Source of the DNA: Escherichia coli
Lineage (GTDB): Bacteria; Pseudomonadota; Gammaproteobacteria; Enterobacterales; Enterobacteriaceae
Strand: one strand, 5' to 3'
Assembly (NCBI RefSeq): GCF_003790525.1
Contig: NZ_CP033635.1
DNA length: 64,000 bases
Made by a program: the position numbers and the translations under genes
Shown here: piece after piece, positions 20,072-20,526 of the stretch
How positions within the stretch are numbered: position 1 is the first letter of the stretch
Layout of the letters: each line of letters begins with the position of its first letter
The notes under the pieces: model-generated
What the model was told of the DNA's origin: nothing
The model's input: the letters and a program-made list of their open reading frames with translations, nothing else
Database searches by the model: none

Positions 20072-20432
20072 CGTAACTTACTCATTATTCTTACATTGAC
20101 GACTAAGCTGCGGGCAAAGTAACGCCTTTCCGGGTGTGAACCGATGGCCTCGTGTCTAGTCGCGTCGCCAACCTCACGGTTATCGTCAGCTCAAAGAGGC
20201 GCAGAGTGTCGGTTGCCCGTTTTTCATGCGGAAAAACAGCGCAATTATCAAAGAAACAGACTGGGTATTACTCTCCAGAAATATTTCCATCTACCGGTAA
20301 GGACTGCAACCCGCAGCCCGCTAACTGCCTGAAAGATCAATACGTCTTACGCCATTGCTGCGTGGATGATCGGTCGGGCAAAATGGGTTATTCCGTAAAA
20401 TTTCTTGTTTTAACAAGGATGGACACGGAAAC
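20072..20432 (-). promoter_or_regulatory. rne 5' untranslated leader (autoregulatory, by established knowledge)
   Basis: Long non-coding stretch upstream of the rne ATG; the ~360 nt extent is taken from knowledge of E. coli rne, not mapped here. Confidence 0.55.
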
Positions 20433-20526
20433 GGCCTCATTATTCCACTGCAAGCCTTGTTATAGCAAGATGACTTTTACCATTTATCACCCGCTTACTC
20501 ACAGTTTTTTCACTTCTTGCTGGTGA
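20152..20526 (+). CDS. yceQ: Doubtful ORF antisense to the rne leader (yceQ-like)
   Basis: 124 aa ORF on the opposite strand of the rne leader; no convincing Shine-Dalgarno and atypical composition. Corresponds in position to the questionable K-12 gene yceQ. Confidence 0.2.

Follow-up and report, generated by a model that had tools for sequence, protein, structure and literature searches.

Does the open reading frame (ORF) that lies opposite the 5' leader of rne in Escherichia coli encode a protein, as its annotation as yceQ in strain K-12 implies? We analyzed this locus in a window of 64,000 nt, the whole stretch of E. coli DNA studied (assembly GCF_003790525.1, contig NZ_CP033635.1; position 1 is its first letter). 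A sequence-only reading of the window had described a 124-aa ORF opposite the rne 5' leader, and such a frame, beginning with GTG, was indeed found there, with a strong match to the RNase E leader element on the other strand (Table 1). That reading had also stated that a gene is annotated at this position in K-12. This is correct, although the gene of K-12 MG1655 (yceQ, b1085, "DUF2655 domain-containing protein YceQ") is annotated with 106 codons, from an internal GTG that corresponds to window position 20206, and not with 124. The K-12 gene matches the window at every base and occupies the same place between rne and rluC; the 124-codon ORF differs in beginning 54 nt further upstream, at GTG 20152. 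A further difference is that PGAP annotation of other E. coli genomes now omits yceQ, and the published verdict is that it is not a gene. That verdict is already known from the E. coli literature; our comparative tests agree with it and extend it across the Enterobacteriaceae, and they bring no new biology. Overall, we consider it highly probable that the yceQ ORF is a chance consequence of the rne leader and promoter that occupy the other strand, and not a gene.

Table 1. Features at the rne–rluC locus, in window coordinates.
Feature	Position	Strand	Basis or remark
124-codon ORF, judged non-coding	20152..20526	+	ORF finder; GTG start, TGA stop
Equivalent of K-12 yceQ (b1085), 106 codons, GTG start	20206..20526	+	K-12 annotation; 0 mismatches to window
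SD-like AAGAGG, 6 nt 5' of GTG 20206	20194..20199	+	complement is CCUCUU in leader stem
rne coding sequence (RNase E)	16898..20071	-	
rluC coding sequence	20644..21603	+	divergent neighbor
rne5 (RF00040), autoregulatory RNase E 5' UTR element	20096..20432	-	Rfam, full-length match
Whole rne 5' UTR, 361 nt, P1 start site to rne ATG	20072..20432	-	putative start site
rne P1 promoter-like site, TTGCTA, 18 nt spacer, AATAAT with TG	20439..20468	-	consensus scan
Double DnaA box TTATCACCCGCTTACTCACAG in 3' end of ORF	20484..20504		published sequence located in window

The rne leader and promoter opposite the ORF

The minus strand at this locus carries a standard E. coli rne5 element, from which no difference was found. 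The match scored 260.1 bits (gathering score, 180; E = 3.4e-82) and covered model positions 1–333 of 333; it immediately precedes rne, with which it shares the minus strand, the element ending at 20096 and the rne ATG standing at 20071. The P1 start site was set at 20432 because the Rfam model begins there and a promoter-like site lies just upstream, and leaders of 361–372 nt are found in most Enterobacterales. The helices covary: in an alignment of 60 diverse Enterobacterales leaders, RNAalifold indicated compensatory changes in 22 of the 38 predicted pairs. Feedback control of the rne mRNA by RNase E through this leader is reportedly established in E. coli (Jain and Belasco 1995; Diwa et al. 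2000), and we infer that the autoregulatory mechanism and the exact transcription start carry over to the present strain.

The leader element occupies the strand opposite 281 of the 375 nt of the ORF (20152–20432), and the other 94 nt lie opposite the P1 promoter-like site and upstream regulatory DNA. The P1-like site was the sole sigma-70-like match on either strand of 19800..20800 in a simple consensus scan, and it fits the rne P1 promoter of the literature. Published work, including that of Goodall et al., has placed the rne promoter inside yceQ, and the double DnaA box corresponds to a ChIP-seq peak labeled "(yceQ) rne" at K-12 position 1144772 (PMC11317965). The earlier proposal that the ORF is a consequence of the structured leader is thus sound for the 281 nt, but not for the last quarter of the ORF, which covers the promoter and DnaA-box region.

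In all probability, the whole of 20072–20643 acts as regulatory DNA of the essential gene rne, read from the minus strand. This DNA would hold the 361-nt structured 5' UTR by which RNase E controls its own mRNA, as well as the P1 promoter and upstream sites that include the DnaA-bound double box, and one frame of the plus strand happens to be stop-free for 124 codons. Purifying selection to keep the RNA structure and the promoter working would act strongly on the nucleotide sequence, and the accidental frame would persist in Escherichia because this selection leaves the sequence hardly changed. At greater divergence, the frame would decay through frameshifts and stops, as an unselected frame should. 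No protein would be made, the absence of translation being taken from published papers, and the old phenotype of an "essential gene yceQ" would represent damage to the rne promoter and leader.

Some natural variation in this regulatory region was also observed. An insertion of ~85–126 nt at the equivalent of window ~20291 lengthens the rne 5' UTR to 448–498 nt, instead of 361–372 nt, at eight loci from Citrobacter youngae, Citrobacter sp. Cu233, Kluyvera, Pseudocitrobacter, Enterobacteriaceae RIT691 and one MAG. The core of the C. youngae insertion (CCCCAGAAGCTTAC...TAAGTGTCTGGGGTGAG) is similar to an ERIC/IRU repeat, with 17/22 positions agreeing by eye with each ERIC primer; a search of the insertion for the ERIC primer sequences gave no match at ≤4 mismatches. 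As a lead, the insertion may be an ERIC/IRU repeat, in which case a mobile repeat would be tolerated inside an autoregulatory leader. In two complete E. coli genomes, insertion sequences were found upstream of rne P1: IS1A between the ORF and rluC in isolate AJ6 (window 20585–20593), and, in an O121 strain, ISEc11 at that end of the ORF where the DnaA box lies (window 20507–20509). These natural insertions indicate that the far-upstream rne/rluC control region tolerates disruption. They were rejected as tests of the ORF, the IS1 lying outside it and the ISEc11 removing just its last ~6 codons.

Length, composition and start signals of the ORF

The 631-nt region 20040..20670 was shuffled 5,000 times with its dinucleotides preserved; a longest ORF of at least 124 aa arose with P = 0.016, and one of at least 106 aa with P = 0.058. 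Unannotated ORFs of at least 124 aa in non-coding frames numbered 25 in 50 kb of the matching O157 genome. In a single region, an ORF of this length is therefore uncommon, yet at the scale of a genome with many intergenic regions it does not exceed chance. The window also contains a far longer spurious ORF than yceQ, a 556-aa frame with a TTG start that is antisense to the C-terminal half of rne (16910–18580, plus strand) and presumably results from the bias and repetitiveness of the rne sequence.

The composition of the ORF had been called unusual from the sequence, and the comparison with real genes bore this out. The predicted product has a Cys content of 6.5%, versus 0.7% in real genes, and GC at first codon positions is 0.40, versus 0.60 ± 0.05. 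Codons were also scored by log-odds, with the 48 annotated genes of the region as training set; the ORF scored -0.32 per codon, whereas annotated genes scored +0.25 ± 0.10 (z = -5.6). Spurious, that is unannotated, ORFs of at least 100 aa scored -0.20 ± 0.17, and against these the yceQ ORF had a z of only -0.7.

The start signals were the one respect in which the ORF resembled a gene. The statement that it lacks a clear Shine-Dalgarno (SD) sequence stood for GTG 20152, where the anti-SD duplex (-3.3 kcal/mol) is weaker than those of 73% of nearby annotated genes. It did not stand for the K-12 start, GTG 20206, at which AAGAGG forms a duplex of -5.8 kcal/mol; this is the median of real genes, and 8.6% of random start triplets from the window do no worse. 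Since GTG 20206 has a decent SD-like motif, the absence of an SD sequence is not the strongest argument against a gene. Both AAGAGG and GTG 20206 are kept in 38/38 Enterobacteriaceae. However, the middle base of AAGAGG corresponds to a leader stem pair that covaries, being UA in 32 sequences and CG in 25 (alignment columns 341–401), and this sole gene-like feature is probably accounted for by that stem.

These signals bear on whether yceQ could be a genuine young gene, restricted to a group such as Escherichia and Salmonella and translated from GTG 20206 at a very low level or in special conditions. An SD-like motif of average strength at a start retained in every aligned species and an ORF length with the low per-region P value given above speak for such a gene. 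The CDS is also still present in the K-12 RefSeq record, a point against our main reading. Against a young gene, the codon usage resembles that of spurious ORFs, and the bases of the SD-like motif and of the GTG are part of the conserved leader. With the comparative and published evidence described below added, we regard a young gene as very improbable.

Conservation, codon positions and frame integrity

The locus is almost invariant within E. coli. A 611-nt segment around the ORF matches O157:H7 genomes at 100% identity, and 5,415/5,425 complete E. coli genomes at 99% or more. For the 375 nt of 20152–20526 themselves, identity is 100% in 51 of 60 evenly sampled complete genomes and at least 99% in 5,396/5,425 E. 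coli genomes, an example of very strong within-species conservation without a real gene. In the E. coli genome search with this sequence, 5 of 5,427 matching places were on plasmid-labeled records, and one of 5,426 genomes had no match.

A 17-mer of the leader core was scanned in 100,044 species genomes, which gave 120 loci, nearly all from Enterobacterales. We aligned 38 Enterobacteriaceae over rne, the intergenic region and rluC, and measured divergence from the window. A few matches of the 17-mer were on records with unexpected names, namely Martelella alba, a Lysinibacillus MAG and a beta-proteobacterium MAG (loci L119, L118 and L045). The record of L119 is probably misnamed or contaminated, because a complete Enterobacterales-type rne leader is present on it. 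A second match in Yersinia (L013, L047) falls within an ORF of 193 aa, and rne is not close by.

The two neighboring genes showed the pattern that is expected of coding sequence, and the ORF did not. Divergence at first, second and third codon positions was 0.020/0.008/0.294 in the first 100 codons of rne and 0.061/0.021/0.415 in rluC, so that the ratio of third to first and second positions was 20.7 and 10.2, respectively. In the ORF it was 0.169/0.109/0.153, a ratio of 1.10. A permutation test of the third-position excess gave P = 0.20 for the yceQ frame, versus P ≤ 0.0002 for rne and rluC. Estimates of dN/dS by the Nei-Gojobori method, against three indel-free or nearly indel-free Citrobacter, were 0.87–1.07 for the yceQ frame, 0.65–1.96 for the other five frames, and 0.01–0.03 for rne and rluC. 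The apparent dS of the ORF, 0.10–0.12, was 5–10 times below that of its neighbors (0.54–1.2), which indicates that all positions are constrained about alike, as is the case for functional non-coding sequence. Conservation and dN/dS analysis across Enterobacteriaceae had been suggested as a check by the sequence-only reading, and by the third-position ratio, the permutation test and dN/dS, in 38 Enterobacteriaceae or against Citrobacter, no coding signature and no purifying selection on a YceQ protein was detected. The comparative and compositional tests applied here all speak against a protein-coding gene, and they show the nucleotide sequence, through its RNA structure and promoter, to be what is under selection. 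A young gene is hard to reconcile with a dN/dS of about 1, equal to that of other frames, and with the lack of codon periodicity.

The start region was considered separately, as the conserved unit might be a short peptide of ~7–40 aa, made from the SD-like motif and GTG 20206, and not the full protein of 106–124 aa. The start context is kept throughout the alignment, and the genera resemble one another in the N-terminal translation, VSVAC(I/V)SYGNTAQLSGE. In the first 20 codons from GTG 20206, however, divergence was 0.255, 0.114 and 0.084 at positions 1, 2 and 3, the reverse of the coding expectation, and that third positions vary least here argues equally against a longer young protein. The frame ranges in length between 7 and 128 codons, the alignment of wider Enterobacterales does not retain the GTG, and no ribosome-profiling reads have been reported. 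A conserved short peptide therefore appears exceedingly unlikely.

In most genera outside Escherichia, the frame itself is broken. Single-base indels were found in nearly every other genus, for example at 20193, 20232, 20268, 20291, 20384, 20429 and 20447. Read from GTG 20206, the frame has 7–41 codons in 23 of the 38 species, 68 in one and 82–128 in 14. The short frames include those of the Enterobacter cloacae complex, Klebsiella, Kosakonia, C. werkmanii, Pseudescherichia, Superficieibacter, Siccibacter and Franconibacter. The frame is 106–109 codons long in Escherichia, 82 in Salmonella and two Citrobacter, and 86–128 in a few others; an ORF of at least 82 codons thus persists in Salmonella, some Citrobacter, Phytobacter and Mangrovibacter. 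Frames of 82–109 codons that share a start in Escherichia, Salmonella and some Citrobacter are what a young gene would leave. Such persistence can also be set against chance. Stops would be created by 5.7% of the single-base changes in the ORF, which gives an expected frame survival of P = 0.63–0.79 over the 4–8 substitutions within Escherichia, and of P = 0.13–0.05 at Citrobacter/Enterobacter-level divergence. Persistence of the ORF within Escherichia was therefore rejected as evidence of coding. A young gene is also at odds with the C-terminus, which already varies within Escherichia (106, 109 or 119 aa); in one strain, a T6-to-T7 change at 20505–20510 has shifted it again. Several "YceQ" protein records of E. 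coli and Shigella are frameshifted (P0007 with one frame change, P0009 and P0016 with several). These were not counted as natural knock-outs, because assembly errors may cause them.

Protein records, published experiments and plus-strand expression

A search of 5.8 billion proteins with the ORF translation returned 32 matches of 68–156 aa, with 28–98% coverage, and all of those with a named organism were from Enterobacteriaceae. Twelve matches were retrieved. Those from E. coli and Shigella align to the window ORF over long stretches, whereas those from Salmonella, Citrobacter, Lelliottia and Klebsiella have in common with it just one 27-residue segment, which is the translated near-invariant core of the leader, and the flanks of this segment jump between frames (e.g., the C. 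werkmanii "YceQ"). Searches of the 124-aa translation against Pfam-A and NCBIfam found no family even at E ≤ 1, and the name "DUF2655" persists in record names alone. PGAP has no annotation under the ORF in 60/60 evenly sampled RefSeq E. coli genomes. In NZ_AP018488.1, the O157 genome closest to the window, the PGAP tags on either side of the region jump from RS06945 (rne) to RS06955 (rluC), with one number skipped. This gap suggests that a feature formerly called there, possibly yceQ, was dropped at re-annotation.

Published experiments are in agreement with these comparisons. Ribosome profiling gave no YceQ reads in three conditions (Price et al.), which is a further point against a young gene. 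Transposon insertions in yceQ were viable only in the orientation able to drive rne (published work, including the TraDIS of Goodall et al.), and dCas9 was toxic only on the strand that blocks rne (Rousset et al.); the former "essentiality" of yceQ has been attributed, from both of these screens, to the rne promoter and leader. In genome recoding, synonymous Ser changes in yceQ (TCG to AGC, TCA to AGT) were not tolerated and harmed the regulation of the adjacent essential gene. Of the five TCG/TCA codons of the K-12 frame, those that start at 20209, 20224, 20248 and 20374 are within the leader, and the one that starts at 20437 is just upstream. This intolerance of synonymous recoding counts against a young protein-coding yceQ. 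There is a published parallel in yaaY, a hypothetical CDS within a 5' UTR, in that recoding of either yaaY or yceQ harmed the regulation of the adjacent essential genes.

The plus strand might also be transcribed and not translated, as a cis-antisense RNA of the excludon type that pairs with the rne leader and modulates rne. ExcludonFinder lists rne-yceQ among 16 divergent excludons present in at least 50% of 58 E. coli RNA-seq samples. The listing is derived from RNA-seq coverage and may or may not reflect plus-strand transcription; it follows nearly automatically when a long rne 5' UTR crosses an annotated gene, and it shows no plus-strand start. In our simple consensus scan, no plus-strand sigma-70-like promoter was found in 19800..20800, and the minus-strand element accounts fully for the conservation. 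Plus-strand RNA around both candidate starts folds no better than shuffles (z = -0.67); the same folding was tried as evidence of SD sequestration and gave nothing useful. An antisense RNA of this kind is, in our view, very unlikely. The broader proposition is that the plus strand opposite the leader is expressed, giving a de novo small protein limited to certain lineages and translated from GTG 20206 with its conserved SD-like motif, or else an antisense RNA with a part in RNase E autoregulation. This is rated as similarly unlikely, and the young gene, the short peptide and the antisense RNA together carry only a small part of the probability.

Overall, our data support the original suspicion that this ORF is probably not a real gene, as it combines a lack of codon periodicity, a dN/dS like that of the other five frames, broken frames in most other genera and the codon score of a spurious ORF with published experiments that point the same way. 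The main value of the result is in annotation hygiene. yceQ is still a reference CDS of K-12 and was long listed as essential, while the functional object at this locus is the leader and promoter of rne. Essentiality lists, genome-recoding designs and pan-genome counts are led astray when yceQ is taken for a gene, and synonymous changes within it are not silent. We suggest that yceQ is a clean example of a CDS to drop from the K-12 annotation.
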